Below, piece after piece: positions 7,239 to 44,821 of a stretch of 64,000 nucleotides of DNA; position 1 is the first letter of the stretch; the number at the start of each line of letters is the position of its first letter. The notes beneath the pieces are model-generated. The model saw nothing but the letters and a program-made list of their open reading frames with translations, had not been told where the DNA came from and did not search any database. The translations under genes and the position numbers were made by a program. Location: positions 14,515 through 78,514 of the forward strand of contig DAONEM010000005.1 in assembly GCA_035403085.1 (NCBI GenBank). The letters are read 5' to 3'. Source of the DNA: Candidatus Aminicenantes bacterium (GTDB lineage Bacteria > Acidobacteriota > Aminicenantia > JAMOAD01).

Positions 7239-7673
7239 ATGGTTGAGCAGATTCTTTACCGATCACTCGCTCCCGATGTGGACCTCTCTCTCCCCCTAGC
7301 CCTCTACGAAGAAGCAGGTTGGATCACCACTGCCGAGAAGGAGAGGGAGACCGTTTCGGCCATCCTGAAGGGGAGCCTCCTCTTTCTCGGTGCCTGGAAG
7401 GGGGAAAAGTTGATCGGTATGGGGCGGGCGATCTCCGACGGGGGAAGCGACGCCTACATTCAGGATGTCTTTGTCTCCGCCCCCTACAGGAACCGGGGAA
7501 TCGGTGCAGGGATCGTCAGCACCTTGGTTCAGAAGTTACGGGAGAGGGGAATCGGTTGGATCGGACTCATCGGCGTTCCCGGGACGGAACGCTTCTACCG
7601 GGAGCTCGGTTTCCGCCCTTTAGAAGGGCATATCCCGATGAGATGGGAGGGTGGTGTTGACGGAAAGCCTTGA
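7239..7673 (+). CDS. GNAT family N-acetyltransferase
   Basis: ATG at 7239 eight nt after the tag stop. Acetyl-CoA motif (YRNRGIGAGIV) and ...FYRELGF. Confidence 0.75.
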   Translation: MVEQILYRSLAPDVDLSLPLALYEEAGWITTAEKERETVSAILKGSLLFLGAWKGEKLIGMGRAISDGGSDAYIQDVFVSAPYRNRGIGAGIVSTLVQKLRERGIGWIGLIGVPGTERFYRELGFRPLEGHIPMRWEGGVDGKP

Positions 7674-8559
7674 GATAGGTTCGCTGAACCCTCTCCGCCT
7701 CCCGGACCGTTCTCTCCTGGAGGGGTACTTCTTCCGGTACCGGAAGGCCCACTGTGAGTATAACTTCTCCACCCTCTACACATGGGATGGAACCAACCGG
7801 TACCTCTGGAAGGTCTACAAGGGGAGGCTTCTTATCTACACCGTGAATTACGACACCCTCATCATGCCGGTGGGGGAGGACTTTTCGCCGAAAGAGCTCC
7901 GGGAGATCTCCGACGCTTTCCGCCTTCAGGGAAGCCGTGGGGGGTTCCTGCTGGCCGACAAGGAGTACGTTCAACAGCGTCAAGGTGAGCTTGAAGCCCT
8001 CTTCTCGCTTGAGGAGGATCGAGACAACGGCGACTACGTCTATCTGACTGAGGAGTTGGCGGAGCTCAAGGGAAGAAAGTTCCACGGGAAGAAGAACCTT
8101 CTCAACCAGTTCCTCAAGGAGTACCCGGACTACTCTTTTCGCCCGGCCACATCCGAAGACGGAGACCTTTGCGTGGCCCTCGCGGAAAAGTGGTGCCGGG
8201 TCAAGGTCTGTGATCGTCCGGACTTCGCCATGGAACTCTCGGCGGTGAAGCGTTCCTTCGATGCCTTCGACGGGATCGGCCTCGGGGGAGTCCTCCTCTT
8301 TGTCTCCGGAGTTCTGGTGGGCTTCTCCCTCTACAGTCGGCAAAGAGAGGACATGGTGACAGTCCACTTCGAGAAGGCGGACCCGGAAGTCAAAGGCAGC
8401 GCGCAGGGGATCAACTGGCTTACGGCGAAGCAGCTGAAGGGGCAATGCCTCTACCTGAACAGGGAGCAGGATATGGGGCTGGAGGGCCTCAGACAGGCAA
8501 AACTCTCCTATCACCCGCGCTTTCTCGTAGAGACCTACCGTCTCTCTCCCCGAGGTTGA
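7651..8559 (+). CDS. DUF2156 domain protein (MprF/LPG-synthase C-terminal-like)
   Basis: 302 aa. Pattern FSTLYTW... and ...KKNLLNQF... resembles free-standing aminoacyl-PG synthase C-domain homologues. Overlaps the GNAT gene by 23 nt. Confidence 0.55.
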   Translation: MVLTESLEIGSLNPLRLPDRSLLEGYFFRYRKAHCEYNFSTLYTWDGTNRYLWKVYKGRLLIYTVNYDTLIMPVGEDFSPKELREISDAFRLQGSRGGFLLADKEYVQQRQGELEALFSLEEDRDNGDYVYLTEELAELKGRKFHGKKNLLNQFLKEYPDYSFRPATSEDGDLCVALAEKWCRVKVCDRPDFAMELSAVKRSFDAFDGIGLGGVLLFVSGVLVGFSLYSRQREDMVTVHFEKADPEVKGSAQGINWLTAKQLKGQCLYLNREQDMGLEGLRQAKLSYHPRFLVETYRLSPRG

Positions 8560-8617
8560 AGGAACTTTTTCTCTCCTCTCTCCGTCTTTTAGTGTAGTTA
8601 TGAACAAGGAGGAGACC

Positions 8618-9049
8618 ATGAAAAGATTGTACCGGAGTCGGAAGAATAAAGTCATTGCCGGCGTTTGCGGAGGCGTGGCAGAATATTTCTCCGTAGACCC
8701 GACCCTCATTCGTTTGGCGGCGGTTCTCATCTTCTTCATGGGAGGAGCCTCTCTGATCGCCTACATCATCGGGTGGGCCTTGATGCCCGTCTCCTATGAC
8801 GGGGAAGAGGGCGTCGTGAACGGGGAGGTTGTCAACGTCGAGAGGAGCGGAACCTCTAACAACGGGAAGAACGGGACTCTGATCTTCGGCATCATCCTGG
8901 TCTCCCTGGGGTGCCTCTTCCTCCTGGACGAAATCTCTTTCTTTAACCCCTTCTACCGGTGGTTTTGGCACCACGGGTGGGAGATTGCCGTCTCCTTGAC
9001 CTTCGTGGGCGTCGGGGCGGGCCTGCTTCTCAAGTCGTCCCGGAAGTAG
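8618..9049 (+). CDS. PspC domain-containing membrane protein
   Basis: ATG at 8618 preceded by AAGGAGG. Motif VIAGVCGGVAEYFSVDPTLIRL; two TM segments. Confidence 0.7.
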   Translation: MKRLYRSRKNKVIAGVCGGVAEYFSVDPTLIRLAAVLIFFMGGASLIAYIIGWALMPVSYDGEEGVVNGEVVNVERSGTSNNGKNGTLIFGIILVSLGCLFLLDEISFFNPFYRWFWHHGWEIAVSLTFVGVGAGLLLKSSRK

Positions 9050-15210: not shown

Positions 15211-15996
15211 TCAGAAAAAGAGGAACCGCTTCTGGTGGACCAGGCAGAGAACCTCTTCGCTGAACTCCGCCAGATCCCAGCTGTAACGCTTGACGGCGTA
15301 GTCGTCCAGAGGTGTCGGGGTCCGGTTGATGATAACCATGCGCCCACCGGCGTTGAGGGTCAGTCCGGGGAGGGTTGACGCTGGAGAGACGATGAGGGAC
15401 GATCCCATGACCAGACAAAGGTCGGCCTGGGATGCGACCTGCTTCGCCTTTTGGAGGATGTCGCTCTTGACGCTCTCTCCGAAGAGGACCGCTTCGGGGC
15501 GGATGAGCCCTCCGCAGGGACAGTAGGGGACCAGGCCCTCAAGAACGGTGGGAAGGATTTCGGTCAGTGGAAAAGGCCTACGGCAGAGGGTGCAAGAGTA
15601 GCTTTCCAGAGAGCCGTGGAGGGGAAGAAGGGCGCGGCTTCCGGCCATCTGGTGGAGGGAGTCGATGTTCTGGGTCGCCGTGGCGATGAGGCGCTCTTTC
15701 TCCTCCAACTCCACCAGGAGCCTGTGGGCGGGGTTGGGACGGGAGGCGAGGATGAGCGGAAGGAACGTCTTGGCGAAGAGGTAGAAGGGTTTAGGGTCTC
15801 TGAAGAAGAGTTCCTTGTCGAAGACGGACCTGCTTCCAGAGGAGAGAATCCCTTGAGGACCTCGAAAATCGGGAATACCCGAAGGGGTGCTGATTCCCGC
15901 TCCGGTCACCGCGAAGATGGCCTTGGCGGAGCGGAGGGTCTCGAGGAGTTCCAGTGCATCCTGGTGAAGGTCTTTCGGGAAGAGAAGAGAGTTCAT
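15211..15996 (-). CDS. cobB: NAD-dependent protein deacylase (Sir2 family)
   Basis: GAGISTPSGIPDFRG NAD-binding motif and Zn-ribbon (CTLC...CPCGG). Overlaps folC by 4 nt. Confidence 0.85.
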   Translation of the reverse strand: MNSLLFPKDLHQDALELLETLRSAKAIFAVTGAGISTPSGIPDFRGPQGILSSGSRSVFDKELFFRDPKPFYLFAKTFLPLILASRPNPAHRLLVELEEKERLIATATQNIDSLHQMAGSRALLPLHGSLESYSCTLCRRPFPLTEILPTVLEGLVPYCPCGGLIRPEAVLFGESVKSDILQKAKQVASQADLCLVMGSSLIVSPASTLPGLTLNAGGRMVIINRTPTPLDDYAVKRYSWDLAEFSEEVLCLVHQKRFLFF

Positions 15997-17282
15997 TCCC
16001 TTTCCAGGAGCGCCTTGATGTTCCCCACCAGGTAGAGGGAACCCGTAACCAGGAGGGTCTCTTGGGGCCGGGCTCCCTTCCTGAGGCGGGCGAGAGCCTT
16101 TTGGGGGTCCAGTTCAACCTCCATGGGAATCCTCAGGCCGGCTTGATGGAGCATGTTGGAGAGCTCCAAGGGATCCTGGGCCTTGGCGACGTCCGAGCGG
16201 GTCAGAACGACCCGTCTGCAGAAGGGAAAGAGCAGCCTGGCCATGGTGATCATCCTCTTGTCGTTGGAGACGCCGAAGAGGCAGGAGAGGTTCCTGAGGC
16301 CCTTCGACTTCAGGTAGGCGACCAGGGTGGCCATTCCCGCAGGGTTGTGCGCTCCGTCAAGAAGCATGTTCTCCCGCGCCCACTCCAGGCGCCCTTCGAT
16401 CTTTGCCTCCTGGAGGCCGAGGAGGGCTTTTTCGCAGACCCTCTCGGGGTTCAGTGGGTCCAGGGAGAGGAGTTCCAGTGTCTTCAGGGCTATGGCCGCG
16501 TTGTAGGCCTGATGGACTCCCAAGAGGGAGGGACGGTAGAGGTAGTCCCCTCCTTCGCTCCGGTAGAGCCATCCGGCTCTTCCATTCCGGAGAAGCCGGC
16601 GTGGCGGGTCGAAGGCTCCGAAGAGGGGGGCGTTCCGTTCCTGGCAGGTCTCTTCGATGACCCTCCGGGCCGAAGGGGGAAGCTTTCCGATGATGACGGG
16701 TTTGCCGGGCTTTACGATTCCCGCCTTCTCCCGGGCGATCTGGGCCACGGTTTTACCGAGAATCTGGGTGTGGTCCAGAGCCACCGTGGTGATGACAGAA
16801 GCTTCGGGGTTCACGACGTTTGTGGCGTCGAGACGCCCTCCCAGTCCGATCTCCAGTACCGCCCAATCAACCTTCTCCTCCTTGAACCAGAGGAAGGCCG
16901 CGACGGTTAAGAGTTCGAAGAAGGTCAGGGGCTGGGGGAGGACTCCCTTGGAAATCGCTTCGTCCACCTTCTCCTTGAGGAAACCGACCAGGGAGGTGAG
17001 GGTCTCTTCGGGAATCTGGGCTCCGTCGATCTTGATCCGTTCTTCGACGCGGACAAGGTGGGGGGATGTGTAGAGGCCTGTCCTAAAACCCATGTGGGAG
17101 AGGGCGGAGGAAAGGTAGGTGGAAACGGAGCCCTTCCCGTTGGTGCCCGTCACGAGGAGGGCACGGAATCTCTCCGCGGGCCTCCCGAGCCCATCGAGGA
17201 AACGGGAGACCCGATCGAGTTCCAACTTGATTCCCAGGCGTTGAAGGGAATCCAGGTAACCGTTACGTTCTTCTAGGTTCAA
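15993..17282 (-). CDS. folC: bifunctional folylpolyglutamate synthase/dihydrofolate synthase
   Basis: P-loop VTGTNGKGS of the Mur-ligase family; 429 aa. Confidence 0.85.
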   Translation of the reverse strand: MNLEERNGYLDSLQRLGIKLELDRVSRFLDGLGRPAERFRALLVTGTNGKGSVSTYLSSALSHMGFRTGLYTSPHLVRVEERIKIDGAQIPEETLTSLVGFLKEKVDEAISKGVLPQPLTFFELLTVAAFLWFKEEKVDWAVLEIGLGGRLDATNVVNPEASVITTVALDHTQILGKTVAQIAREKAGIVKPGKPVIIGKLPPSARRVIEETCQERNAPLFGAFDPPRRLLRNGRAGWLYRSEGGDYLYRPSLLGVHQAYNAAIALKTLELLSLDPLNPERVCEKALLGLQEAKIEGRLEWARENMLLDGAHNPAGMATLVAYLKSKGLRNLSCLFGVSNDKRMITMARLLFPFCRRVVLTRSDVAKAQDPLELSNMLHQAGLRIPMEVELDPQKALARLRKGARPQETLLVTGSLYLVGNIKALLERE

Positions 17283-17291
17283 AGAGGACTC

Positions 17292-17534
17292 TTAGATCTC
17301 TTCCACCTCTTCCCCGCTCTCGGCGAACTCATCGGGTTCACCCAGGAGGGTCGCGGCGCCGTCGTAGATCTGTTTGATGACCTTCCTCTGGTTGTGGAGA
17401 GAGGCCATTCTCTCCTTGAAGGCTTTCACTTCATCTTTGACCTGTTGGTCGATGGAAATGATCTGGGACCGGGTCTGCTCGAGGGTGTTGCGATAAAAAT
17501 CTTCGTTGGTTTTGGTGATGTCCACCATCAGCAT
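17292..17534 (-). CDS. hypothetical small acidic protein
   Basis: 80-aa ORF between the RR-kinase gene and folC; acidic C-terminus, no known motif. Confidence 0.3.
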   Translation of the reverse strand: MLMVDITKTNEDFYRNTLEQTRSQIISIDQQVKDEVKAFKERMASLHNQRKVIKQIYDGAATLLGEPDEFAESGEEVEEI

Positions 17535-17569: not shown

Positions 17570-20500
17570 TTATTGAATCATCATGGAAACCGTTGTCCAG
17601 ACTTTGACCTTCACGCCTTGGCTGACGGGAGGTGTGAAACGCCATCCCGAGATGGCTCTCTCCATGGAGCTTTGAAGGGAAGAGAGGGCGGGGGAGACTT
17701 TCAGTATCATGAACTTTTCCGCTCGACCGTCGATTCCCACGAGAACCTGCATCATGATCCGGTAGGGGCCGCGGCGTCTCTCCTCGGAGGTTATGGAGGG
17801 GACACTCTTAGAGGTCGCCTTCACAGGGAAATCCAGGGCCGTCGCGGCGACAACGGAACCTTCCGCGGGCCCCGAGGGCTGCTGGGGCTGAGGACGGGGT
17901 TGAACGGTCTCTTGAGGTGTGCTCTGAACGGGAGAGGCGGCTGGAGTCTGTTGCTGGGGGGTCGGTTCGCTCGCCTTGGGCGGCTCGACCACGGGCTTGC
18001 TCTCCTCTTTGGGCTTGTCGTTCCCGATCTGAGCGGGGGCAGCAGCCTTAGGCTCCTGCTTCTTCTCCGGAGTGGGAGGCTGGACCTGAGCCGCAGCCTT
18101 AGGCTCCTCCTTCTGGTCTGTCCCCTTGGGCTCGGTCTGTGCCGGTGTCGTGGCAGGGAGCGCCGCGTCTTGAAGGCCTGTCTGAAGGGCTGGAGGCTGA
18201 GTCGATGTTGTCTGACCGGGGGTTTGAACCTGGGGAACCGTGGAGGGGGCGGAACCTCTCTTCAAGACGAAGAAGAGGACAACCGCTAAGACCAAAACGG
18301 CGATGCCGACGATCAGGGCGATAGGAGGACGTTTGGCCTCCTCCTTCAAGAGGGCGTCTAAATCTTGTTGGGCTTGGGAGTGCTTGTTGGGGACGAACTT
18401 GACCGGTTCCGGTTCTTTGACGGCTTTCTGGGGAGGGGGTTGCACCGCTTGGGGCTTGGGCGGCTTCGGCTCCTGAGGAGGGGCCTTCGGCAGAGGGGGC
18501 TCCATGGGAGGAGCCGGCGTCGGTGATGGGGCCGCCACGGGAGGAACGGTCTTCTCGCCTCTCTTCTTGAGGATGTCTTCAAACTCCTTCTGCTTGCGGA
18601 AGATCTCCTTGGTGTCGTCGACGGCAAATCCCTCGTGGGCCACCTCTTCGGGAAAGAGCTGGGCGATGGTTTTGCAGAGAAGATCCTTGGCCAGAGGAAG
18701 GTTGACGTCGACCTCCACCATGATCTTCTCCAGTTCCGAGGTGATTTCTTTGGCGGAACCGAACCGCTTCTCCGGGGAGAGTTGGAGGCAGTGTTTGATA
18801 AGCTCGCTTACCTCTCCGGGGATACTCGGGTCGAGGGACTCCGGAGGGAGAAACTCCGCCTTCTTCACCTTTTCGAGAATCCCGATCTCCGTGGTTTCCA
18901 GGAAGGGGTTGCGGAGGGTGAAGATCTCGTAGAGGAGAATGCCGTAGGCGAAGATGTCCGAACGGTGGTCAACCTCGGCCTCTCCCCGGGCCTGTTCGGG
19001 GGACATGTAGATGAACTTGCCCTTCAGGCCCCCTGCCTGAGTCTGGTGAATCTTGTTCTTCGCCTTGGAGATCCCGAAGTCGGTGAGCTTGACCTCACCG
19101 TTGAAGGAGATAAGGATGTTCTGAGGCGTCACATCCCTATGGACAATGTTCAAAGGGTTTCCCGAGTTGTCGTTCTTCTTATGGGCGTAGTCCAGCGCCT
19201 CGCTTACCTTGAGGGCGATGTGAAGGGCTACATCCAGAGGCATCTTCCTCTTCTCTTTGCGAAGCTTCCTCAGGATGGCTCCCAGATCCTTCCCGGGGAC
19301 GTACTCCATGGCGATGATGTACTCTCTGTCCATCTTCCCGAGATCGAAGATCTGGACGATGTTGGGGTGGGAGAGGGAGGCGGCGATTCGGGCCTCATCG
19401 GTGAACATGGCGATGAACTCTTCGTCGTTGGCGAACTGCGGGAGGATCTTCTTGATGGTGACGATCTTCTCAAAACCTCCGGGACCCCTTTGCCGGGCCT
19501 TGTAGATCTCCGCCATGCCTCCGGTGGCGATCTTCTCAAGGAGTTCGTACCTCCCTTCCGCCTTCACCTCTCTCTCAAGGGGCTTGGGTGGCTCTTGAAA
19601 GGAGGGGGCGTGAAACGGGAGGGGCTCCACCTTTTGAGGAGGGGGAGTCACGGGGAGTTCCTGGGCGGGAGCAGGAGCAGGAGGGGGGGGAGCCACGGGT
19701 GGTTCCTGGACAGGAGCAGGAGGAGGTTGGGGCGAAACCGGTTTTGGAGAGGAGACCGGAGCGGCCTTACCCTCGTGAACGGCCTTGGAAGGGACGCTCT
19801 CTCCGGCGGTCGGTTTTCGCCGAAGGTCGACCAGGGTCTTATGGATCAACTCGTCTATGTCGTCGTATTCGATGTTCCTTCTCTTCTTCTCCGGGGCCGG
19901 GGCGACCGGCGGAGGAGGAACGGGGGATGCCTGTCTTGGGGGCTCCGCGGCGATCTTGGGGGGCATGGGCTCCGTGTGGGAGACCGGGCGAGGAGCCGGG
20001 GGTTCCGCCTGGGCGATCGTAGGGCGGGGAGGGGCCGGAGAGGGGGCCGGGGATGCCACTGGGGTCGGGTGGTGCGAAGGGGCGGGTTGTTCGTCCAGTA
20101 GAGAATCCGGAAGGTCTTTGTTGATCTCGTCCAAGATGTCGCCGAAGAGGGAGTCCACGGAGAGAAGCTCCTCCCTCTTTGCCCGAGGTGTCGCAGGGGG
20201 AGGGGCGCTTACAACCGGAGGTGAGGGGGGCTCGGTGACCGGAGGGGGAGGGGCACTCACAACCGGAGGTGATGGGGGTTCGGCGACTGGAGCCACCCGG
20301 GTCATGTCTCCCTCTTCGGGAGCCTTGAACCCGGCGACCAACTCCAGTGCCTTCCAGACCTCTTCCAGAGGGAAGGGCTTCTCCAGGAAGGCGGAGGCCT
20401 TGCAGTCGTGGACGGCCTTGTGGCGAATGGCCTGTCCCTTGTAGATACCCGATACGACGATGATGGGAAGATCGGGAAGCTGGGCTCGGATCCTCGTTGT

Positions 20501-20698
20501 CAGTTTCAGCCCGTCGATCTTGGGAATAACGATTTCGCAGATGACCGCGTGAAAATTCTCCCGCAGCCTGTCTAGCGCGTCAAGACCGTCGGCAGCCGTT
20601 TCCACCACGATATCGAAGGAACTCAGAAAGTGGGTAAGATTCTTCACGAAACGGGCATCGGTGTCGACGATCAAAATCTTTTTCCGGTCGTTTTCCAC
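17570..20698 (-). CDS. multidomain REC (Asp->Glu) - Pro-rich linker - Ser/Thr protein kinase - TM - TonB C-terminal domain protein
   Basis: GTG start at 20698 with GAGGTAGG RBS. REC domain has Glu at the phospho-acceptor position. Kinase motifs present (TGGMAEIYKA, ...HRDVTPQN, DFGISK, SPE). TM segment IALIVGIAVLVLAVVLFFVL. C-terminus ...GPYRIMMQVLVGIDGRAEKFMIL... resembles TonB_C. Confidence 0.8.
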   Translation of the reverse strand: MENDRKKILIVDTDARFVKNLTHFLSSFDIVVETAADGLDALDRLRENFHAVICEIVIPKIDGLKLTTRIRAQLPDLPIIVVSGIYKGQAIRHKAVHDCKASAFLEKPFPLEEVWKALELVAGFKAPEEGDMTRVAPVAEPPSPPVVSAPPPPVTEPPSPPVVSAPPPATPRAKREELLSVDSLFGDILDEINKDLPDSLLDEQPAPSHHPTPVASPAPSPAPPRPTIAQAEPPAPRPVSHTEPMPPKIAAEPPRQASPVPPPPVAPAPEKKRRNIEYDDIDELIHKTLVDLRRKPTAGESVPSKAVHEGKAAPVSSPKPVSPQPPPAPVQEPPVAPPPPAPAPAQELPVTPPPQKVEPLPFHAPSFQEPPKPLEREVKAEGRYELLEKIATGGMAEIYKARQRGPGGFEKIVTIKKILPQFANDEEFIAMFTDEARIAASLSHPNIVQIFDLGKMDREYIIAMEYVPGKDLGAILRKLRKEKRKMPLDVALHIALKVSEALDYAHKKNDNSGNPLNIVHRDVTPQNILISFNGEVKLTDFGISKAKNKIHQTQAGGLKGKFIYMSPEQARGEAEVDHRSDIFAYGILLYEIFTLRNPFLETTEIGILEKVKKAEFLPPESLDPSIPGEVSELIKHCLQLSPEKRFGSAKEITSELEKIMVEVDVNLPLAKDLLCKTIAQLFPEEVAHEGFAVDDTKEIFRKQKEFEDILKKRGEKTVPPVAAPSPTPAPPMEPPLPKAPPQEPKPPKPQAVQPPPQKAVKEPEPVKFVPNKHSQAQQDLDALLKEEAKRPPIALIVGIAVLVLAVVLFFVLKRGSAPSTVPQVQTPGQTTSTQPPALQTGLQDAALPATTPAQTEPKGTDQKEEPKAAAQVQPPTPEKKQEPKAAAPAQIGNDKPKEESKPVVEPPKASEPTPQQQTPAASPVQSTPQETVQPRPQPQQPSGPAEGSVVAATALDFPVKATSKSVPSITSEERRRGPYRIMMQVLVGIDGRAEKFMILKVSPALSSLQSSMERAISGWRFTPPVSQGVKVKVWTTVSMMIQ
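20196..20291 (-). repeat. tandem ~48-nt direct repeat (2 copies) encoding a PPSPPVVSAPPP proline-rich unit
   Basis: Visible copies ggggaggggcgcttacaaccggaggtgaggggggctcggtgacc and gggggaggggcactcacaaccggaggtgatgggggttcggcgactgg inside the kinase gene linker. Confidence 0.7.
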
Positions 20699-20802
20699 TA
20701 TCCTACCTCATCAAAGGGGATTTCGATTAAAAGGAGCTCAGCAAGACCTTACCGACCATTCTAATCAAATTCAAATCCTTTGTCAAAAGGAAAAGGAACC
20801 CC

Positions 20803-22407: not shown

Positions 22408-24504
22408 ATGAAAGAGTTCATGACCGAGAACATCCGAAACGTGGCTCTCATTGGCCACGGGAACTCCGGGAAGACCTCTCTGGCGTCGGCCTTTCTCTTC
22501 GATGCCGGAGCCGTCAACCGGTTAACCAAGGTAGAACAGGGAAACACGATCACCGATTACGATTCCGAAGAGATCGAAAGAAAGATCACGATCTTTACCG
22601 CCCTTGCCAACTTGGAGTGGAATAACCATAAAATCAACCTCTTGGACACCCCAGGTTATGGAAACTTCCTTTGGGACACCAAGGCCGCCCTCAGGGTCTC
22701 CGAGGGAGCCATCGTCATGGTGGACGCCACCGCCGGAGTCGAGGTTCAGACCGAAAAAGGCTGGAGCTTCGCCGCTGAGTATGGGGTCTCCCGGATGATT
22801 GCCATCAACAAGATCGACAGGGAAAGGGCCTCTTTCGCCAACACCATGGAGAGCATCCACGACTTCTTCGGCCGTAGCGCCGTTCCCGTCCAGATTCCTA
22901 TCGGCCAGGAAGCCTCCTTCAAAGGTGTTGTCGACCTGATCAAGGGGAAAGCCTACCTCTTCGCCGCCGATGAGAGCGGGAAAATGACCGAGGCGGAGAT
23001 TCCCGCCGACCTGAAGGGCGAGTACGACGAAGCCCGTCAGGCTCTCGTCGAGATGGTCGCCGAGCAAGACGAAAGCATCATGAACAAGTACCTGGAAGAG
23101 GGAGACCTCTCCGGTGAAGATATTATGACCGCCTTGAAGAAGGGTGTGACTTCCGGTGAGCTCGCGCCGGTCTTCATCCTCTCCGCGGCAAAGAACATGG
23201 GTGTTCAGCCCCTTCTGGACGCCATGGTCTCTCTGATCCCCTCCCCGGCGCAGAAGGGGAGTCTCTCCGCTACACTGGGAGGAAAAGAGGCCCCCGTGAA
23301 GGTCGACGCGAAAGAGCCCTTCTCGGGAATCGTCTTCAAGACCCTCTCGGATCCTTACGCAGGGCGGATCAACCTTCTGAAGATCGTCTCCGGCGTTTTG
23401 GCCGTCGACGCCACCGTGGCCAACACCTCCCGGGAGATCGAGGAGAAGATCACCTCCCTCGCCTTCCCCATGGGCAAACAGCTCAATGCCGTTGAAAAGG
23501 CCTATGCAGGCGATATCATCGCGACTTCCAAGCTCAAGGAGACTCTGACCGGAGAGACCCTTGCCGCGAAGGAACGGCAGGTTATCCTCGACCCGATCGT
23601 CTTCCCCGCCTCCTCCATCAGCTTCGCCCTCGAACCTAAGACGCGGCAGGACGAGGACAAGCTCTCCACGGCTCTGGTGAGAATCACAGAAGAGGATCCG
23701 ACGGTGAAGTTCAAGAGGGATCCTCAGACGAAGGAGTTGATCATCTCCGGGAACGGACAACTCCATATCGAGATTCTCGTTGCCAGGCTGAAGAAAAAAT
23801 TCAACGTTGATGTGATCCTGAAGCCCCCGAAGATCGCCTACCTTGAAACGATCAAGGGGAAGGCCGATGTTGAGCACAAGCATAAGAAACAGACCGGTGG
23901 ACGTGGCCAGTACGGTCATGTCAAGATCCGTTTGGAGCCTCTTCCCAGGGGAGGGGACTTCGAGTTTTCCAACGACATCTTCGGAGGCGCCATTCCGAAG
24001 AACTATGTTCCCTCGGTGGAGAAGGGGATTCAGGATGCCCGGCTCAAGGGCGTTCTGGCCGGTTACCCCACTGTAGACTTCAAGGTGAGCCTCTACGATG
24101 GCTCTTACCACGAGGTGGATTCTTCGGATATGGCCTTCAAGATCGCCGCTTCCCGCGCCTTCAAGAAGGGGGCTAAAGAGGCCAAGCCCACTCTGCTGGA
24201 GCCTATCGCCAACGTTGAGATTTACGCTCCCGAAGAACTTCTCGGGGATATCATGGGCAACCTCAACGGCCGCCGGGGGAAACCCTTGGGGACCGACAAG
24301 AAGGGGAAGATCAGCATTATTAAGGCTCAGGTTCCCCTGGTGGAGATGCTCGACTTCGAACCTACCCTCACCTCCATCACCGGAGGCAGGGGTTCCTATA
24401 CCATGGAGTTTTCCCATTACGAAGAGGTTCCAGGAATGCTCCAGCCTAAAGTCATTGAGGCGGCCGCCAAAGAGGGCCGTACCCAGGAGGAAGAGGAGGA
24501 TTGA
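22408..24504 (+). CDS. elongation factor G paralogue (EF-G2-like translational GTPase)
   Basis: G1 motif AxxGHxxSGKT and DTPG, then EF-G domains II-V. ATG at 22408 (ORF track begins at in-frame GTG 22405). Confidence 0.85.
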   Translation: MKEFMTENIRNVALIGHGNSGKTSLASAFLFDAGAVNRLTKVEQGNTITDYDSEEIERKITIFTALANLEWNNHKINLLDTPGYGNFLWDTKAALRVSEGAIVMVDATAGVEVQTEKGWSFAAEYGVSRMIAINKIDRERASFANTMESIHDFFGRSAVPVQIPIGQEASFKGVVDLIKGKAYLFAADESGKMTEAEIPADLKGEYDEARQALVEMVAEQDESIMNKYLEEGDLSGEDIMTALKKGVTSGELAPVFILSAAKNMGVQPLLDAMVSLIPSPAQKGSLSATLGGKEAPVKVDAKEPFSGIVFKTLSDPYAGRINLLKIVSGVLAVDATVANTSREIEEKITSLAFPMGKQLNAVEKAYAGDIIATSKLKETLTGETLAAKERQVILDPIVFPASSISFALEPKTRQDEDKLSTALVRITEEDPTVKFKRDPQTKELIISGNGQLHIEILVARLKKKFNVDVILKPPKIAYLETIKGKADVEHKHKKQTGGRGQYGHVKIRLEPLPRGGDFEFSNDIFGGAIPKNYVPSVEKGIQDARLKGVLAGYPTVDFKVSLYDGSYHEVDSSDMAFKIAASRAFKKGAKEAKPTLLEPIANVEIYAPEELLGDIMGNLNGRRGKPLGTDKKGKISIIKAQVPLVEMLDFEPTLTSITGGRGSYTMEFSHYEEVPGMLQPKVIEAAAKEGRTQEEEED

Positions 24505-26627
24505 CGCTGATTTCCAAGAGGGGACGTCGCCCTTTAGGGGGAGCGTCCCCTCTCCTCCCCTCCGCCCTCCGTCTTTCCCTGGGCATTTTTTCTCTTCTTT
24601 TTCCCTCGTTTCTCGGCGCCTACGTAGGACCGGGGGCGGGGTTCGCCTTTCTCGGCTCCTTCTTCCTCGTTTTCCTCGCCTTCTTCTTCGCCCTCTTCAA
24701 CCTGATAACCCTGCCCTTTCGAGCTTTGGTGCGGAGGGTAAGGCGCCTCAGGAGGCGAAGCAAAAGCCGGTTCCGTCGGGTGATTCTCTTGGGGTTCGAT
24801 GGAATGGACTACACTCTGACCGAAGGGATGATGGACCGAGGGGAGCTCCCCAATTTCGATAGGCTCCGGAAGGAGGGTTCTTTTTGTCCCTTGAGAAGTA
24901 CCGACCCTCCGCTCTCCCCGGTCGCCTGGTCGACCTTCGCCACCGGGGTGAACCCCGGGAAGCACAACATCTTCGATTTTCTCTCCCGGGATCCGAAAAA
25001 CTACCTTCCCCTCCTCTCCTGCTCTTCTGTCCACCCTGGGAAGAGTTATCGGTGGGGGCGTTGGCTGGTTCCCCTCTCGAAGGCCAGGATCTCTCTTCTA
25101 CGCAAGAGCCGTTCTTACTGGTCTCTCCTGGGGCAAGAGGGGATTCCTTCCCTGGTGCTTCGGGTTCCGATCACCTTCCCCCCCGAGAAGTTTAAAGGGA
25201 TACAGTTGGCCGGGCTGGGAACGCCGGACCTCCGGGGAACCCAGGGGAGTTCGACCCTCTTCTCGACCTCTCTCTCCGACGCCTCTCTTCTGGCGGACAA
25301 CAGGGTCTGCCTCCTGGAGAGGGAGGGGGAGATTCTGAAGGGGGAGATCGAAGGCCCTCCCCATCCCTTTCTCGACGGCTCTCCTCTCATGAGGGTTCCC
25401 TTCACCCTCCGGCTTCTCCCGGACGGGGGGGCTGAACTGAAGGTTCAGAGGGAACGGGTGGTTCTCAGGGTCAACGCTTTCTCCCCTTGGGTACGGATCG
25501 CCTTCTCCGCGGGGCCCTTGAAAGTCTGGGGGCTGAGCCGCTGGGTCCTCCGTCGGACAGAGCCGGACGTGGAGGTCTACCTGGCTCCCCTTCAGATCGA
25601 CCCTGAGGAGCCCTCTATGCCGATCTCCTACCCAGGGACCTTCGCCCCCTATCTGGCCAAGAGGTTCGGTTCCTTCGCGACTCTGGGTATGGCGGAGGAC
25701 ACATGGGCCTTGAACGAGGCGATTCTGGACGACCGGCTCTTCCTGGACCAGGTCTATGACGCTCAGGTCGAGAGGGAGAGGGCCTTCTGGGATGGATGGG
25801 AAAAGCAGAGGGAGGGAGTTCTCACCGCGGTCTTCGAGGCTACCGATCGGATCCAGCACATGTTTTGGCGCTACACCGACTCCAGCTCTCCGGCCCCCAG
25901 GGACACGGACTCTCCCGCCTCGACCGACGCGATTCCCGAGGTCTACCGAAGGATGGACCGTTTCCTCGGGGAGGTCCTGAGCCGCAAGAAGAGCGATGAG
26001 GCGGTTCTCGTGGTCTCCGACCACGGGTTCAACCTCTTTCGCAGGGGGTTTCACCTCAACTCATGGCTCAAGAGGGAGGGGTACCTGGTGCTTCAGGAGG
26101 GCTTCACCGAGAGCGGGAAGTGGTTCGCCAACGTCGATTGGTCCAAGACCAAGGCCTACGGGACAGGGTTGAGCGGCCTCTTCCTCAACAGGAAAGGGCG
26201 GGAGAGGGACGGTTTCCTCACCCGGCAGGAGGCGGAGGCTCTCCAACGGGAGATTCAAGAGAAGTTGACCGAGGTGAAGGATGGGGACGAGAGGGTCTTC
26301 GACGCGGTCTTCCGCCGGGAAGAGATCTACGAAGGCCCCTATGTGGAGAACGCCCCGGATATCGTCTTGGGCTATAGGCCCGGTTTCAGGGTCTCTTGGG
26401 AATCCGCCGTCGGTTTTGTGGATGACCGGCTTCTCTCGGATAACACCCGAAGGTGGAGCGGCGACCACTCCTTCACCGCCGCCAAGGTTCCGGGAATCTT
26501 CTTCTCCGACCGGAAGGTCGGCGTCACGGACCCCGGGCTGATCGACATCGCCCCGACCCTTCTCTCCCTCTTCGGCGTCCCCAAGCCCTCCTTCCTGGAG
26601 GGGCGGGATTTGGAGGTGAAAGGGTGA
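24501..26627 (+). CDS. alkaline-phosphatase-superfamily protein (nucleotide pyrophosphatase/phosphodiesterase-like), membrane anchored
   Basis: N-terminal hydrophobic helices and Arg-rich stretch, then LGFDGMD...DPPLSPVAWSTFATG catalytic-core pattern; 708 aa. Confidence 0.6.
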   Translation: MTLISKRGRRPLGGASPLLPSALRLSLGIFSLLFPSFLGAYVGPGAGFAFLGSFFLVFLAFFFALFNLITLPFRALVRRVRRLRRRSKSRFRRVILLGFDGMDYTLTEGMMDRGELPNFDRLRKEGSFCPLRSTDPPLSPVAWSTFATGVNPGKHNIFDFLSRDPKNYLPLLSCSSVHPGKSYRWGRWLVPLSKARISLLRKSRSYWSLLGQEGIPSLVLRVPITFPPEKFKGIQLAGLGTPDLRGTQGSSTLFSTSLSDASLLADNRVCLLEREGEILKGEIEGPPHPFLDGSPLMRVPFTLRLLPDGGAELKVQRERVVLRVNAFSPWVRIAFSAGPLKVWGLSRWVLRRTEPDVEVYLAPLQIDPEEPSMPISYPGTFAPYLAKRFGSFATLGMAEDTWALNEAILDDRLFLDQVYDAQVERERAFWDGWEKQREGVLTAVFEATDRIQHMFWRYTDSSSPAPRDTDSPASTDAIPEVYRRMDRFLGEVLSRKKSDEAVLVVSDHGFNLFRRGFHLNSWLKREGYLVLQEGFTESGKWFANVDWSKTKAYGTGLSGLFLNRKGRERDGFLTRQEAEALQREIQEKLTEVKDGDERVFDAVFRREEIYEGPYVENAPDIVLGYRPGFRVSWESAVGFVDDRLLSDNTRRWSGDHSFTAAKVPGIFFSDRKVGVTDPGLIDIAPTLLSLFGVPKPSFLEGRDLEVKG

Positions 26628-28609
26628 ACCGTCGACAGTTTCTCAAGACCGGAGGTGTTCTGGCCGCTTCGACCCTCCTGGCTTCGCCGCAGTTGATCTC
26701 CCGGAGCCACTCCGCCAGGAAACTGCTGGTCCTGGGCTTCGATGGAATGGACCCCAGAATCGTCCGTCTCCTGGTCGAACAGGGTCGTCTCCCCGCCTTC
26801 AGGCGCCTCATGGAACGCGGAACGCTTCAGAGTATGTTCTCCACCGACCCTCCCGCGAGCCCCGTGGCTTGGGCCTCCTTTATCACCGGCCTCGACCCGG
26901 CGGGCCACGGTATCTTCGACTTTGTTCACCGAGATCCGGAGAACTACCTTCCCCACTTCGCCATCAGCGAGGCCGAGGCGCCCCGTCGGTTCCTTAAGCT
27001 CGGCTCCTGGAAGCTTCCCATGGAAAAGGGAGGAATCCGTCTGTGCCGTGAGGGCAAGCCCTTTTGGAATCTTCTGGAAGAGGCCGGACAGGACTGTACG
27101 ATCTTCAAGATTCCCTCCAACTATCCCCCTTCGCCCATGGAGAGGGGGAGGAGCATCGCCGGGATGGGAACCCCCGACATCACCGGCGATTCCTATGGGG
27201 TTTACACGATCTTCACCACCGACGAGGGCGAGGCTTCCCGTTCTTTCTCGGCCGCCAAGGCTCTCTTCCTGATCTTCGACCCCCAAGGGGCGGCGGAGAG
27301 TGAGATCGTCGGTCCCCCCCATCCGCTCAAAGAGGAGGAGACCCTCTCCCTTCCCCTCAAGGTCTACTGGGATAAACGCCACCGAACCGCCCGGCTGGAC
27401 GTTGCCGGAAGAGAGATTCTCTTGGCCGAAGGCGGTGTCTCCCCCTGGATCCCCCTTAAGTTCCCTCTGATGCCTTTCAAGGAGTTGCCGGCTATGGTCC
27501 GCTTTCAGCTCCTTGAGGCGGGGGAGCGTTTCCGCCTCTACCTCTCCCCCCTCTCTCTAGACCCCGCCGATCCGGCCCAGCCTATCTGCGAGCCTTCGGA
27601 CTACGGCAAGGAGCTGGTCCATCGCTATGGGCGGTTCCATACCCTCGGCCTTCCCGCGGATACGAAAGCTTTCAGCGATGGGACCTTCGATGTCCAGGAC
27701 TTTCTCTCCCACAGCGAAACCATTCTCCACGAGAGCGAGAGGATCTTCGCCGGAGAGCTGGAGAGGTTCTCTTCCCTTTCTCGGGGAGGGATGCTCTTCT
27801 TCTACTTCTCCTCCGTCGATCAGGGAAGTCACATGTTCTGGTCCCTCCGGGACGAGGGTCATCCCCTTCACAAACCGGAAGAACGAAAGCGGTACGGCGA
27901 CCCCGTGGAGAATCTCTACCTCCGGTTCGACAGGATTCTCGATCGGGCGATGAAGGGTCTTCCCAAGGGAGCCGATCTGATCGTCCTCTCCGATCACGGC
28001 TTCACGACCTTCCGCAGGAAGGTGAACATCAACACCCTCCTTCAAAGGGACGGTTTTCTGAAACTGAAGAGTGGGTACGATCTCCCGGTCTCCCTCTACG
28101 AGGGGGCCCTCTGGGGCGAGACCCAAGCCTACGCCCTCGGCCTCAACGGTCTCTATCTGAACCTGAAGGGGCGGGAGGGGGAGGGCGCCGTCGACCCTTC
28201 GGAGCGTTCTCGGAAGGTTCAGGAGTTGAAAACGTGGCTTCTCTCGCTGAAAGATCCCGGGAACGGCGCCGCTCTGGTGACCAAGGTGACGGTTCCGGAG
28301 AGGGAGTTTTCGGGACCCTGGATGAAGAGGGGGCCGGATATCGTCGTGGGTTTCAACGACACCTACCGCATTGACAACGATTCGGCGTTGGGAACCCTTA
28401 CCCCCGAAGGGGTAAAGGAGAACAGGGACCGCTGGTCCGGAGACCACTGTGTGGACTCCCGTGTCGTCCCCGCCCTTTTGATGACAAGCTTTCCATGCAA
28501 GACAAACAGGGCGCCGGTCATCTGGGACCTGGCGCCGACGATCTTGAAGCTCTTCTCCCTGACTCCTCCGTCGGAGATGCGGGGGAAGAGTCTGATTGAA
28601 GCGAGGTGA
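26624..28609 (+). CDS. alkaline-phosphatase-superfamily paralogue with twin-arginine (Tat) signal
   Basis: GTG start overlapping upstream stop (GTGA). Tat motif RRQFLKTGG; same LGFDGMD...DPPASPVAWASFITG pattern as its neighbour. Confidence 0.6.
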   Translation: MNRRQFLKTGGVLAASTLLASPQLISRSHSARKLLVLGFDGMDPRIVRLLVEQGRLPAFRRLMERGTLQSMFSTDPPASPVAWASFITGLDPAGHGIFDFVHRDPENYLPHFAISEAEAPRRFLKLGSWKLPMEKGGIRLCREGKPFWNLLEEAGQDCTIFKIPSNYPPSPMERGRSIAGMGTPDITGDSYGVYTIFTTDEGEASRSFSAAKALFLIFDPQGAAESEIVGPPHPLKEEETLSLPLKVYWDKRHRTARLDVAGREILLAEGGVSPWIPLKFPLMPFKELPAMVRFQLLEAGERFRLYLSPLSLDPADPAQPICEPSDYGKELVHRYGRFHTLGLPADTKAFSDGTFDVQDFLSHSETILHESERIFAGELERFSSLSRGGMLFFYFSSVDQGSHMFWSLRDEGHPLHKPEERKRYGDPVENLYLRFDRILDRAMKGLPKGADLIVLSDHGFTTFRRKVNINTLLQRDGFLKLKSGYDLPVSLYEGALWGETQAYALGLNGLYLNLKGREGEGAVDPSERSRKVQELKTWLLSLKDPGNGAALVTKVTVPEREFSGPWMKRGPDIVVGFNDTYRIDNDSALGTLTPEGVKENRDRWSGDHCVDSRVVPALLMTSFPCKTNRAPVIWDLAPTILKLFSLTPPSEMRGKSLIEAR

Positions 28610-31456: not shown

Positions 31457-31861
31457 ATGCTTCTCCTTCGCCTGAAACGGTTCCTGTTGAAGAGGCTCTT
31501 GGCCCTTCCAGAGCCGAACGGGCGAAGAACCGGGCGGCTGGGGGAACTCTTCGCCCTCATGACGCTTAGGCTTGAGGGGTACCGCATCCTGGAAACAAAC
31601 CGGCATCTCTCCTTTGCCGAGGCGGACATCGTTGCCGAAAGGAACGGGGAGATCGTGGTCGTGGAGGTGAAGGTTCGTCGAGGAGGGGTCTACGGCGATG
31701 CCAGGGACTCTCTCTCGGCCAAGAAGATCGAGCGGCTGAGGAAACTGGCCCTCTTCTGGAGTGAAGGAGAACAGAGGAACGCCCGCCCTCTCCTCTTCGC
31801 GATCGATGTGAAGGGATCGAAAGTGTGTTATAGTATTTTGGAGGTCTTGGAATATGGCTGA
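31457..31861 (+). CDS. yraN: YraN family (UPF0102) predicted PD-(D/E)xK endonuclease
   Basis: Pattern ...FAEADIVAERNGEIVVVEVKVRRG. Starts 2 nt after smpB. Confidence 0.7.
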   Translation: MLLLRLKRFLLKRLLALPEPNGRRTGRLGELFALMTLRLEGYRILETNRHLSFAEADIVAERNGEIVVVEVKVRRGGVYGDARDSLSAKKIERLRKLALFWSEGEQRNARPLLFAIDVKGSKVCYSILEVLEYG

Positions 31862-34115
31862 GTCCGGAAAACCGCTGGAAGCGTTGTTTGCCCGTTCCCA
31901 AGACTTCAACGATCTGGACTTTCGGCTTCTCCTCGAACAGCTTCTCAAGAGGGGGGGGAAAGAGATCGAGGACGGCGTAGCCCTCTCCTTGGTGAACGGC
32001 TCCCTCTCCCTGCGGATACGGATGAACCTGATTCGTGTCACCGGCTATGTTCAGAGGAGCCTCTTCCTGGTGAACCTGAAGAGGGTCCTGGAGAACGAGA
32101 ACAACCCCTCTCTGGTCAAGGAGTCCATCCTGGCCGTCTCCAAATACAACGACCGTAGGGCCCTGAACATTCTGAGCAGCGCCCTCTCCCGGATCAAGGA
32201 CCCCTCCCTGGAGGGGATCATCAGGACCGAAATGGCCAGGATCAAGGACAACAACCCTCTGCTGGCCCTTATGCCCCGTTTCCTCGAGGGAAAGGCGAAG
32301 ATGAAGAACTTCCGGACCACCGTGGAGATCTTGAAGAAGGTCTTGTCCCCCGCGGACTGTCGCACCTTCCTCCCCTTCCTCAAGGGGCAGGAACCGACTC
32401 TTGCGTACGGGGCCTTCGAGGTTCTCTGCTACCGGGGGGACGAGGGTCACTTCCCTTCTCTCCGGGCCTTCTATCAGGAGAAGGCCGGCCTCTTCATCGA
32501 AGGGCATCGGGAGGAGACGGAGCTCTTCTACGTGGCCTCCGGCGCATGGGAGAACTATGTGGAGCGTTTTCACAAGATCGCCTCCGAGATCCTGTCGGAG
32601 ACCATCGATCTCTTCCAGCGTATCGAGGAGACCCGGATTCGGGAGCACCTTCTCGGGATCATCGCCGCCGAAGAGAAGGGGGTCCTCTTCCTTGGACAGG
32701 TTTACAAAGAGAGGGAAGAGCTCCGGGCGGTTTGCCGGGAGAAGCTCTCTTCCTCCGAGGAGGGGGCCGAGATTCTTCTCTCCTCTTATGGAGAAGACCC
32801 GAAACCGGAGACTACGGCGGCCCTGCTTAAGAGCGAAAAGGGGCGTAACCACTTCCTCGCCCTCTGGAACGAACTCCCCCTAGAGGAGAAAGAGAGGCTT
32901 CTCGCTCTCCTGAGAGAGGAGAGCTACGAAGATTTCCGCGAGAGGGTCTATGAGGCTCTCGTCGCTCCCAACGTGAACCTCCAGAAGCAGGCTCTCCAGA
33001 CGGTCCTCTCCTTCCGGGACCTCGGAGCCGAGGCGACTCTTCTCGACCCCGCCAAGAGGGGGTGTTTCGGGACGCTGGAGAGGGAGTACATCAACCTTGT
33101 TTCCGAGCTCTTTCCCTCGAGGCTTATCAACCTTGCCGTGGAAGAGGCGGGACAGAGTGGAGAGTTCTCCGCCTCCCGGTTCAGGCTTATCTGGGAGAAG
33201 ATCGCCCTCTTCGGTCAGTGGGAGCCACTGCTCCGGTGGGAGAACAGGGACAGCTTCCTGACCCTTACCGAGAAGGTGGCGAAGTTGGGTGCCCCCGATA
33301 TCGGCGTTCCCTTCATTCAGGCCTACAGTAGGCTGAAAACCATCAGCCCCGCCACCTTTGCCATCCTTCAGAAGGGGTGGACCACTTTTCTCTCCCTGCG
33401 AAAGGAGGAGATCTCCGACGAGGAGAGGGCGGAGGTGCCTAAGGCCGAAGAGAACCTCGAGGCCTTGGGAAGGCTCCTCAACCCTCTGGAAGAACCGGTG
33501 AAGTCAGCCCTCTACATCCTCCAGAAGGAGACCCTTGACCCTGCAGCCCTCAGGGCCTTTTGGGAAACGAACCCTCTGGCCTTTGCCCTGCTCAGGGAGC
33601 GAATCTGTGAGAGGGTCAAGAACGCGCTTCTTTCAACAGACGCTCCGGAACAGACCCTCGCGGTCTTGGGGGTCTTAGGCCTCTCCCCTCTCTTCTCCTC
33701 CTACTTTGCCAAGGAGATCGAAGAGTTGAGTCGTTCCGAGAAGTACCTTGTTAAGAGTGAGGCGGAACGCCTTCTTTCAAGGATGTCTAAGGAGAGGCTC
33801 ATCCTGGTAGAGACCGAGGATCCGAAGCTTAAGTGGACCGTGGAGGCCCAGATTCGGGAACTCCTGCCGGACTTCAAGATCATCTCCAACCTGAACCAGG
33901 GGGAGCCCGCGCAGGTTTTGGCCGATCACGAGAATCTCCGCCGAGAGAGCGCCCTTCAAGGGGGACCCTGGGGGGTGACCGCGTTCCTGAAGGATCCCAC
34001 CGAGCACGGGGAACTCCAGGGTGAAGGCTCTGTCCGTGCTTTCCTCCCCCCCTACAGTATGGCCAAGATCTTCTACCCCCTCTTTAAGGACCTTTTCCCA
34101 TGGCGCAGATCCTAA
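31854..34115 (+). CDS. large uncharacterised alpha-helical protein (753 aa)
   Basis: Long Leu/Glu/Arg-rich ORF; no recognisable catalytic motif. Overlaps yraN by 8 nt and mutL by 16 nt. Confidence 0.5.
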   Translation: MAESGKPLEALFARSQDFNDLDFRLLLEQLLKRGGKEIEDGVALSLVNGSLSLRIRMNLIRVTGYVQRSLFLVNLKRVLENENNPSLVKESILAVSKYNDRRALNILSSALSRIKDPSLEGIIRTEMARIKDNNPLLALMPRFLEGKAKMKNFRTTVEILKKVLSPADCRTFLPFLKGQEPTLAYGAFEVLCYRGDEGHFPSLRAFYQEKAGLFIEGHREETELFYVASGAWENYVERFHKIASEILSETIDLFQRIEETRIREHLLGIIAAEEKGVLFLGQVYKEREELRAVCREKLSSSEEGAEILLSSYGEDPKPETTAALLKSEKGRNHFLALWNELPLEEKERLLALLREESYEDFRERVYEALVAPNVNLQKQALQTVLSFRDLGAEATLLDPAKRGCFGTLEREYINLVSELFPSRLINLAVEEAGQSGEFSASRFRLIWEKIALFGQWEPLLRWENRDSFLTLTEKVAKLGAPDIGVPFIQAYSRLKTISPATFAILQKGWTTFLSLRKEEISDEERAEVPKAEENLEALGRLLNPLEEPVKSALYILQKETLDPAALRAFWETNPLAFALLRERICERVKNALLSTDAPEQTLAVLGVLGLSPLFSSYFAKEIEELSRSEKYLVKSEAERLLSRMSKERLILVETEDPKLKWTVEAQIRELLPDFKIISNLNQGEPAQVLADHENLRRESALQGGPWGVTAFLKDPTEHGELQGEGSVRAFLPPYSMAKIFYPLFKDLFPWRRS

Positions 34116-37505: not shown

Positions 37506-37588
37506 GAGCAGATCTTCACACCGTTTTTGGGCGATTTCGCCGAAGAAGAGCCAGTGGCCCTTCCAGAGAAGAGAATCCGCGGGGGGTG

Positions 37589-44717: not shown

Positions 44718-44821
44718 GAAACCACTATAAGACAATCCAGGAAGGGTGTCAACAACCTGGGGTTTGACTTGCCTTGGCCTTTTCATTACAATGTTTTTCT
44801 GCGAGTATGAGGAGAGGGACG

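Follow-up and report, generated by a model that had tools for sequence, protein, structure and literature searches.

The 64,000-nucleotide stretch of Candidatus Aminicenantes DNA analyzed here (contig DAONEM010000005.1, positions 14,515–78,514; hereafter the window) carries on its minus strand a gene of 1042 codons (17570..20698, with a GTG start and its stop codon at 17570–17572). Its product appears to be a bitopic, receptor-type Hanks Ser/Thr kinase in which a TonB C-terminal domain (TonB_C) serves as docking or sensor module, a reading to which we would assign a probability of roughly one half. From the N-terminus the protein consists of a receiver (residues 8–118), a disordered linker with two conserved motifs, a kinase domain (384–652), a single transmembrane (TM) helix (~793–812), a tether and the TonB_C domain (~945–1042). 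A preliminary description, made from the sequence alone, had proposed a single 1042-residue open reading frame (ORF) combining four modules; its coordinates proved exact and all of the modules were recovered, the strand, which it had not stated, being minus.

A search with the full-length protein gave 1093 matches, and nearly all of the best 120 are 900–1200 residues long with the same domain order; the conservation counts given below rest on 113–120 of these homologues. The same order of modules is found in more than 110 of them, down to ~30% identity. The survey of homologues called for in the preliminary description found the tail conserved as well, since a family TonB_C profile matches 116 of 120, and no fewer than two of the remaining four carry the label partial at NCBI. 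The sources are Acidobacteriota, Thermoanaerobaculia and Aminicenantes metagenome-assembled genomes, and the proteins are labelled either “TonB family protein” or “protein kinase.” Gene neighborhoods were compared at 11 loci (the window, L001, L002/3, L004, L005, L006, L009, L010, L011, L012 and L013), the starting point being the kinase for eight of them and, for the other three, a small gene that lies downstream of it.

The C-terminus (residues ~945–1042; 17573..17866, minus strand) can, on profile and model evidence, be assigned securely to a genuine TonB_C fold. On the full protein Pfam TonB_C (PF03544) matches residues 981–1037 with an E value of 9e-4 and 20 bits, under its 24.6-bit cut-off; the last 100 residues alone score 25.1 bits, and all 33 of the family C-termini tested match PF03544 (best 4.5e-22). 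A profile of the 33 family C-termini detects TonB C-terminal domains (CTDs) in the PDB at E 2e-11, and TolA at only E ~0.5. The AlphaFold2 (AF2) model of the domain has a mean predicted local distance difference test (pLDDT) score of 94.7, and a Foldseek search of the PDB with it places only TonB CTDs or TonB homologues (FusB) in the first 14 ranks. Leading these is 6i97_D (TonB with FoxA; TM-scores 0.68/0.74, root-mean-square deviation 2.2 Å), and 2gsk_B (TonB with BtuB) is also among the top matches. The TonB-like tail, as first described, is thus upheld by profile, AF2 model and Foldseek alike. The profile searches and the structure prediction proposed at that stage returned Response_reg, Pkinase and, at a TM-score of up to 0.74, the fold of TonB CTDs, with TonB_C below threshold on the full length and recognizable on the isolated tail.

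That the protein might be an artefact, whether through a frameshift that fused two genes or because a generic low-complexity kinase tail mimics TonB_C, could be argued from the sub-threshold full-length score and from linkers that are long, repetitive and Pro-rich. We regard this as refuted. The ORF is uninterrupted, with no internal stops, and its product is identical to HPS99350.1 (P0121; “protein kinase [Candidatus Aminicenantes bacterium]”), a sequence that occurs on 55 contigs; variants with 1–6 residue changes, mostly Thr/Ala in the low-complexity spacers, occur on many further contigs. Because near-identical copies are found on so many contigs a frameshift or assembly artefact is excluded. 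The preliminary description had itself named a frameshift as a way in which it could fail, and the gene is intact and a single ORF, its module order being shared throughout the homologues. A generic tail is ruled out by the confident AF2 model and its TonB CTD matches. Among NCBIfam models the whole protein matches generic kinase and response-regulator entries only, all far under equivalog cut-offs.

The TM helix (~residues 793–812, IALIVGIAVLVLAVVLFFVL; 18263..18322, minus strand) lies within a hydrophobic segment at ~788–818. Exactly one such segment is present here and in each of the 40 homologues inspected, in keeping with the single helix originally noticed. Since the kinase requires cytoplasmic ATP, no signal peptide is present and the only TM helix lies C-terminal to the kinase, we infer that the N-terminus is cytoplasmic and the C-terminal ~230 residues periplasmic. 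Between the helix and TonB_C runs a Pro/Gln/Ala/Thr/Lys/Glu-rich tether of ~130 residues (813–944; 17867..18262, minus strand). In 116 family members it measures 113–385 residues with a median of 140, the linker being composed of A 19%, P 17%, T 10%, Q 9%, E 9% and K 8%; in Escherichia coli TonB ~118 residues separate the TM helix from the C-domain. The protein has, as TonB does and as first described, a Pro-rich spacer long enough to span the periplasm.

The TM helix itself is not of the TonB type. E. coli TonB couples to ExbBD through the S16/H20 face of its helix, and the N-terminal helix with a Ser...His signature for ExbB-ExbD is missing from the 120 homologues, in which the TM sequence is unconserved, a His in the TM core occurs in 0 of 120 and no polar residue is conserved. 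The YP motif (Y163-P164 in E. coli) is replaced by I-T in the window protein (SVPSITSEE) and is missing throughout its clade (P0001–P0011); [YF]P is retained in 82 of 118 family members. Among the features of TonB proteins YP is reported to be the one conserved best (bioRxiv 10.1101/2023.07.07.548152). Because the clade has lost YP and the TM His is absent, canonical energised TonB behaviour is unlikely, and TonB_C here probably serves for docking or sensing at the end of a passive tether and does not transduce energy.

One could nevertheless picture an energy-transducing TonB paralogue, coupled to ExbB-ExbD and pulling transporter plugs, in which the kinase and receiver only regulate or report its use. 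The TonB_C fold, a spacer of canonical length, the N-in single-TM topology and the YP kept by 82 members would all suit such a protein, as would the BtuFCD-like genes found downstream in four loci (see below). Bacteroides TonB homologues with extra N-terminal domains are also known (bioRxiv 10.1101/2023.07.07.548152), and in locus L010 a canonical exbB-exbD-exbD-tonB operon (L010:1–2138, minus strand) lies ~1 kb from the kinase gene, with ruvC between them. That operon cuts the other way as well, for it gives the related genome a separate, conventional TonB system, and L010 is the only one of the 11 loci with exbBD nearby. Neither ExbB, ExbD nor a second TonB_C was found in the 64-kb window. 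The preliminary description had noted no adjacent ExbBD or histidine kinase, and none is present nearby when the whole window is searched. The nearest protein with HATPase_c (41770–43218, minus strand, 482 residues), probably a histidine kinase, is ~21 kb away, and its gene follows one for an SBP_bac_5 solute-binding protein (41770–44786, minus strand).

A further argument comes from a family variant of 1294 residues in locus L009 (L009:1883–5767, plus strand), which has no TonB_C in any reading frame. It keeps the pseudo-receiver, linker motif 1, two copies of motif 2, the kinase (HRDVSPQN, LKGK), the TM helix and the downstream small ORF; its periplasmic tail is acidic and of low complexity. 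Since the TM helix is unconserved and without His, no exbBD occurs in the window, the L010 genome has its own TonB and the L009 variant dispenses with TonB_C, signalling is favored over energy transduction, which we consider unlikely as the role of this protein and the less so of a clade that has lost YP.

The kinase domain (residues 384–652; 18743..19549, minus strand) matches Pfam Pkinase (PF00069) at E 5e-42, with 144.6 bits against a cut-off of 31.7. Its nearest solved relatives are Mycobacterium tuberculosis PknA and PknB (E ~1e-36), with StkP also among the closest. The key residues are K416, E435, H520-R521-D522, T524, N527, D540-F541-G542, T553, K559-G560-K561 and S566-P567-E568. Of these K416 (beta3), E435 (alphaC), HRD, N527, DFG, SPE (of the APE type) and the activation-loop T553, which aligns with T171 of PknB, are invariant in 120/120 homologues. 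The Gly loop reads A-T-G-G-M-A, and that of M. tuberculosis PknA is likewise I-A-T-G-G-M.

Two features depart from the usual pattern. The catalytic-loop Lys of HRDxKxxN is replaced in every one of the 120 homologues, by Thr524 in the window protein and across the family by Ser (111), Asn (7) or Thr (2), and the “GT” of the P+1 loop is “GK,” lying within an L-K-G-K that is invariant (120/120). The preliminary description had taken the kinase to be catalytically competent. The other catalytic residues agree with this, but the lost Lys and the P+1 “GK” had both been overlooked. In PKA the catalytic-loop Lys, K168, contacts the gamma-phosphate, and the P+1 Thr201 contacts both Asp166 and Lys168. 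Because the P+1 residue that in PKA touches the catalytic Asp and Lys is here an invariant Lys, the alignment suggests that the positive charge has shifted from the catalytic loop to the P+1 loop. No literature on an HRDVSPQN-type motif was found, few subscription journals being within reach. If the loss of the Lys abolished phosphotransfer, the protein would be a pseudokinase scaffold that tethers cytoplasmic partners to an envelope-spanning anchor, a reading that the replacement of this Lys in 120/120 sequences would favor. We think it quite improbable: invariance of all the other catalytic residues is atypical of pseudokinases, and the equally invariant P+1 Lys hints at a relocated charge.

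The N-terminal domain (residues 8–118; 20345..20677, minus strand) matches Pfam Response_reg at E 3.5e-18 (66.2 bits, cut-off 30.2) and the structures of CheY, Spo0A and PhoP at E ~1e-9 (HMMER). Its key positions are D12, T13, E55, P59, S83 and K107. Glu55 occupies the place of the CheY phospho-acceptor Asp57, as a MAFFT alignment and independent HMMER alignments to CheY and Spo0A agree, so that the substitution originally proposed is confirmed. In 113 homologues this position is Ser (67), Ala (21), Gly (9), Glu (8), Thr (4), Arg (3) or Tyr (1) and never Asp, with Glu restricted to the clade of the window protein. The second metal-binding Asp (CheY D13) is Thr13 here and Tyr in 96/113 homologues; D12 is retained. 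S83 and K107, at the positions of CheY T87 and K109, are kept in the window protein. In the family the K109 position is Lys or Arg in 105/113, and the T87 position is variable (V/S/M/T). The preliminary description had seen the acidic pocket, the Ser/Thr and the Lys as retained and the Glu as phosphomimetic. Ser and Lys stand and the pocket, with Thr13, does not; neither does the phosphomimetic Glu hold as a general trait, for the survey of homologues found it in only 8 of 113, Ser being the commonest residue.

A receiver that is recognized by profile and lacks the phospho-acceptor Asp meets the definition of a pseudo-receiver or aspartate-less receiver (ALR) (PMC4395418, PMC12632262). Judged from the alignments, the domain is a pseudo-receiver family-wide, and what is conserved is that Asp phosphorylation is impossible, not a locked-on state. 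Among ALR substitutions Glu ranks first in frequency and Ser third (PMC4395418). In ShkA and CikA the pseudo-receiver is a cis inhibitor of the kinase to which it is attached (PMC12632262). Fusion of a pseudo-receiver to a Hanks kinase or to TonB is not mentioned in either paper (PMC4395418, PMC12632262).

Pseudo-receiver and kinase are joined by a disordered, Pro-rich linker with two conserved islands. Motif 1 (residues 178–193, LLSVDSLFGDILDEIN; 20120..20167, minus strand) has the family consensus LTS.DIF[GS]D.L, and motif 2 (residues 279–292, DDIDELIHKTLVDL; 19823..19864, minus strand) the consensus D.D....DTLSGL. In 114 full-length homologues the occupancy of motif 1 is 0.89, compared with 0.3–0.6 in the surrounding linker. 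Two in-frame tandem duplications also occur in the linker, of 48 bp x2 at 20195–20292 and 45 bp x2 at 19636–19726; the former encodes EPPSPPVVSAPPP twice. A 90% identical homologue (P0002) is shorter by 16 residues, chiefly because 12 residues are missing close to the second repeat.

A small gene of 80 codons (17292..17534, minus strand) follows the kinase gene after 35 nt. No Pfam family covers it, and the search with its product gave 2054 homologues of ~74–80 residues, again without a Pfam match. A gene of this type (~71–84 aa) lies directly downstream of the kinase, on the same strand, in 11/11 loci, the gap being 9–233 nt overall and 76 nt or less in ten of them. Twelve positions are invariant in 41 sequences of the partner, and Thr17 is its sole near-invariant Ser/Thr. 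The AF2 model (pLDDT 85) shows one long alpha-helix (residues 8–64) followed by an acidic tail. Next comes folC (folylpolyglutamate synthase, Mur ligase family, by Pfam; 15993..17282, minus strand), in a gene order that is conserved. No terminator-like site was found on the minus strand between the kinase gene, the small gene and folC, and folC is probably co-transcribed with the other two. Upstream of the kinase gene is a sigma-70-like promoter (TTGACA-17-TAGAAT, 20758..20786, minus strand) with 11/12 consensus matches, in a region with five promoter-like sites as compared with 0.7 expected from shuffles. A GAGG Shine-Dalgarno sequence is located ~9 nt ahead of the GTG start.

The neighborhood is one ground for another explanation, in which TonB_C is only an envelope anchor, binding peptidoglycan or an outer-membrane lipoprotein, and the protein is a growth or envelope kinase, the Gram-negative counterpart of the PASTA kinases PknB, PrkC and StkP; it would act on lipid and one-carbon metabolism or on cell division rather than report transporter occupancy. 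The order kinase – small gene – accD and/or folC recurs in 9/11 loci, and ruvC/yebC adjoin in several. Around the window gene the surroundings are of a housekeeping and envelope kind (HflK/C, LPG_synthase_TM, an amidase and a SpoIID-domain protein). The kinase domains closest in structure are those of PknA, PknB and StkP, the partner resembles many division and scaffold proteins in being one long helix, and the YP-less TonB_C of the clade would suggest an altered ligand. Against this, nothing in the present analysis supports peptidoglycan binding by this domain. The linkage to accD-folC may also reflect common descent of the arrangement and have no functional meaning; L012 and L013 retain the importer genes but no longer show it. 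We hold this explanation to be doubtful, if worth keeping in mind.

The genes that bear on transport are those of a BtuFCD-like type II ATP-binding cassette importer (Peripla_BP_2, FecCD, ABC_tran), which directly follow the small ORF in 4/11 loci (L004:13276–15813, L005:11251–13732, L012:11508–14208 and L013:11170–13714). Their best NCBIfam matches are BtuF and BtuC, under equivalog cut-offs. In L013 an outer-membrane protein with a Plug domain is encoded 1.8 kb upstream. Substrates of importers of the BtuFCD class enter the periplasm via TonB-dependent transporters, and the importer genes of the four loci therefore give circumstantial support to a link with TonB-dependent uptake. The suggestion of the preliminary description that the kinase might sense outer-membrane transporters gains from them in the same circumstantial way.

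On our preferred reading, that of a receptor-type kinase with TonB_C as its docking or sensor module, the protein might work as follows. The tether, of at least 113 residues, would allow TonB_C to reach the outer membrane as a periplasm-spanning module, and to bind a partner at or near that membrane by beta-strand addition, as the C-domains of TonB and TolA do. Most plausibly TonB_C would there meet a TonB-dependent transporter and take up a TonB-box-like peptide of it. Such contact would bring kinase molecules together or reorient them and so promote trans-autophosphorylation on Thr553, whereupon the signal would pass to cytoplasmic targets, the small helical protein being the prime candidate for a substrate or adaptor. 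The pseudo-receiver would receive no phosphate from a histidine kinase; most likely it would regulate the kinase in cis or recruit a partner, like those of ShkA and CikA.

A more specific version can be proposed, in which the system performs Ser/Thr cell-surface signalling. TonB_C would capture the TonB box of a ligand-loaded transporter and the kinase would thereby be turned on, catalysis making use of the Lys relocated from the catalytic loop to the P+1 loop. The kinase would phosphorylate the Ser at the former Asp position of the pseudo-receiver and/or Thr17 of the partner, with the Glu of the Aminicenantes proteins mimicking phospho-Ser. A receiver would thus have been converted from His-Asp to Ser/Thr phosphorylation. 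The cargo would be of the corrinoid, haem or siderophore type, in line with the BtuFCD-like operon genes of several lineages. We offer the version only tentatively and think it unlikely as a whole.

Several points weigh against the preferred reading. The mechanism is built on domain logic and gene neighborhood, from which ligand, substrates and the direction in which the signal runs are deduced. Docking to a canonical TonB box appears least certain for the window protein, whose clade is without YP, and the L009 variant suggests that the core of the family can function without TonB_C. The lost catalytic-loop Lys could mean low or altered kinase activity. The importer association is seen in four of the 11 loci only, and neither a TonB-dependent receptor nor BtuFCD genes occur in the 64-kb window. 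No cobalamin or other riboswitch was detected by Rfam near the kinase or importer genes in the window and ten loci, the matches elsewhere in these sequences being tRNAs and Acido-Lenti-1 RNAs only; specificity for cobalamin is therefore unsupported.

Comparison with known systems places the protein between several of them. With TonB of E. coli and Pseudomonas it shares the TonB_C alpha/beta fold, a Pro-rich spacer of similar length and a single N-in TM anchor. Unlike TonB, whose cytoplasmic tail is of ~10 residues, it has a cytoplasmic extension of ~790 residues (pseudo-receiver and kinase), and it lacks the TM Ser/His signature, the YP (in its clade) and exbBD nearby. The PASTA kinases PknB, PrkC and StkP, together with PknA, resemble it in having a cytoplasmic Hanks kinase, juxtamembrane disorder, one TM helix and an extracytoplasmic sensor, as well as an RD-type catalytic loop and an activation-loop Thr aligned with PknB T171. 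It differs from them in possessing TonB_C in place of PASTA repeats, an additional N-terminal pseudo-receiver and a diderm host, in the replacement of the catalytic-loop Lys by Thr, Ser or Asn across the family, and in having P+1 “GK” rather than “GT.”

In concept it is also like FecA-FecR-FecI, where information from an outer-membrane transporter reaches the cytoplasm via a single-pass inner-membrane protein. Fec-type systems are characterized by an N-terminal signalling domain on the transporter, the FecR anti-sigma protein, regulated proteolysis and an extracytoplasmic function (ECF) sigma factor, whereas the present protein has TonB_C in the periplasm and a Ser/Thr kinase as its output, with no sigma or anti-sigma genes nearby. 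In TonB1 and TonB10 of Bacteroides thetaiotaomicron (M56/BlaR1-TonB_C) a TonB_C domain is likewise joined to a signalling-type N-terminal module, but theirs is a multi-pass M56 peptidase and YP is kept, where ours is a cytoplasmic kinase. These M56/BlaR1-TonB_C proteins are stated to be functionally uncharacterized (bioRxiv 10.1101/2023.07.07.548152). The ALRs ShkA, CikA, FrzS and ChxR share a receiver fold without the phospho-acceptor Asp and the second metal-binding Asp; here its fusion partner is a Hanks Ser/Thr kinase in place of a histidine kinase or DNA-binding domain, a pairing of which no described example was found. By analogy only, WNK kinases too appear to supply a catalytic Lys from a non-canonical position. 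In WNK the beta3 Lys has moved to the Gly loop, while the present family has dropped the Lys of the catalytic loop and acquired one in the P+1 loop, presumably in a functional swap.

Some further features of the window and the related loci were noted. PatA_N (PF14332) proteins are encoded within ~2–7 kb of the kinase in four loci, in varying position and strand (L002:5086–5634, L004:7609–8445, L005:5748–6629 and L006:17884–19029). Two adjacent, paralogous ORFs of ~710 residues are present in the window at 24501–26627 and 26453–28609, both on the plus strand; the first matches PF01663 (type I phosphodiesterase/nucleotide pyrophosphatase) and the second looks alike on inspection. Taken as mechanically called ORFs the two share ~175 nt, and the second probably starts later. 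Five long ORFs (390–753 residues), putative genes, gave no Pfam match at E<=1e-5: 31854–34115 (plus), 35775–37826 (minus), 47759–49705 (plus), 3182–4411 (minus) and 7567–8739 (minus). Locus L006 contains two Acido-Lenti-1 matches (RF01687; 2474–2519, minus, and 2615–2660, plus) of ~47 bits as compared with a gathering score of 37. They form an inverted pair ~100 nt apart, upstream of an unannotated gene of 162 codons.

The architecture had initially been thought uncharacterized. This stands insofar as no paper on a receiver-kinase-TonB_C protein was found in the literature searched, which omits most subscription journals; the architecture is not rare, however, but that of a large Acidobacteriota family already labelled in the databases. 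Each of its domains is known by itself, and bacterial Hanks kinases bear sensor domains of many kinds; it is the present combination, the family-wide pseudo-receiver, the change in the active site and the invariant small partner that no paper found describes. A search with residues 1–300 does not delimit the family: it returned 1000 matches at E<=1e-10, mostly of unrelated architectures, in which ordinary receivers score like distant family members. A scan of genome contigs with the full protein recovered only two unrelated Firmicutes kinases, the back-translated patterns being too specific.

The family is large and strongly conserved across abundant and poorly studied Acidobacteriota (Aminicenantes, Thermoanaerobaculia and others). 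Were the proposed reading true, this would be the first TonB C-domain to serve as the sensor of a Ser/Thr kinase, and these bacteria would possess a third route of trans-envelope signalling in diderms, beside the two-component and sigma/anti-sigma systems. The family would likewise provide a natural test of the published speculation that Hanks kinases control aspartate-less receivers of the Ser type, and its active-site change, the exchange throughout of a catalytic-loop Lys for one in the P+1 loop, would be of interest to kinase enzymology.

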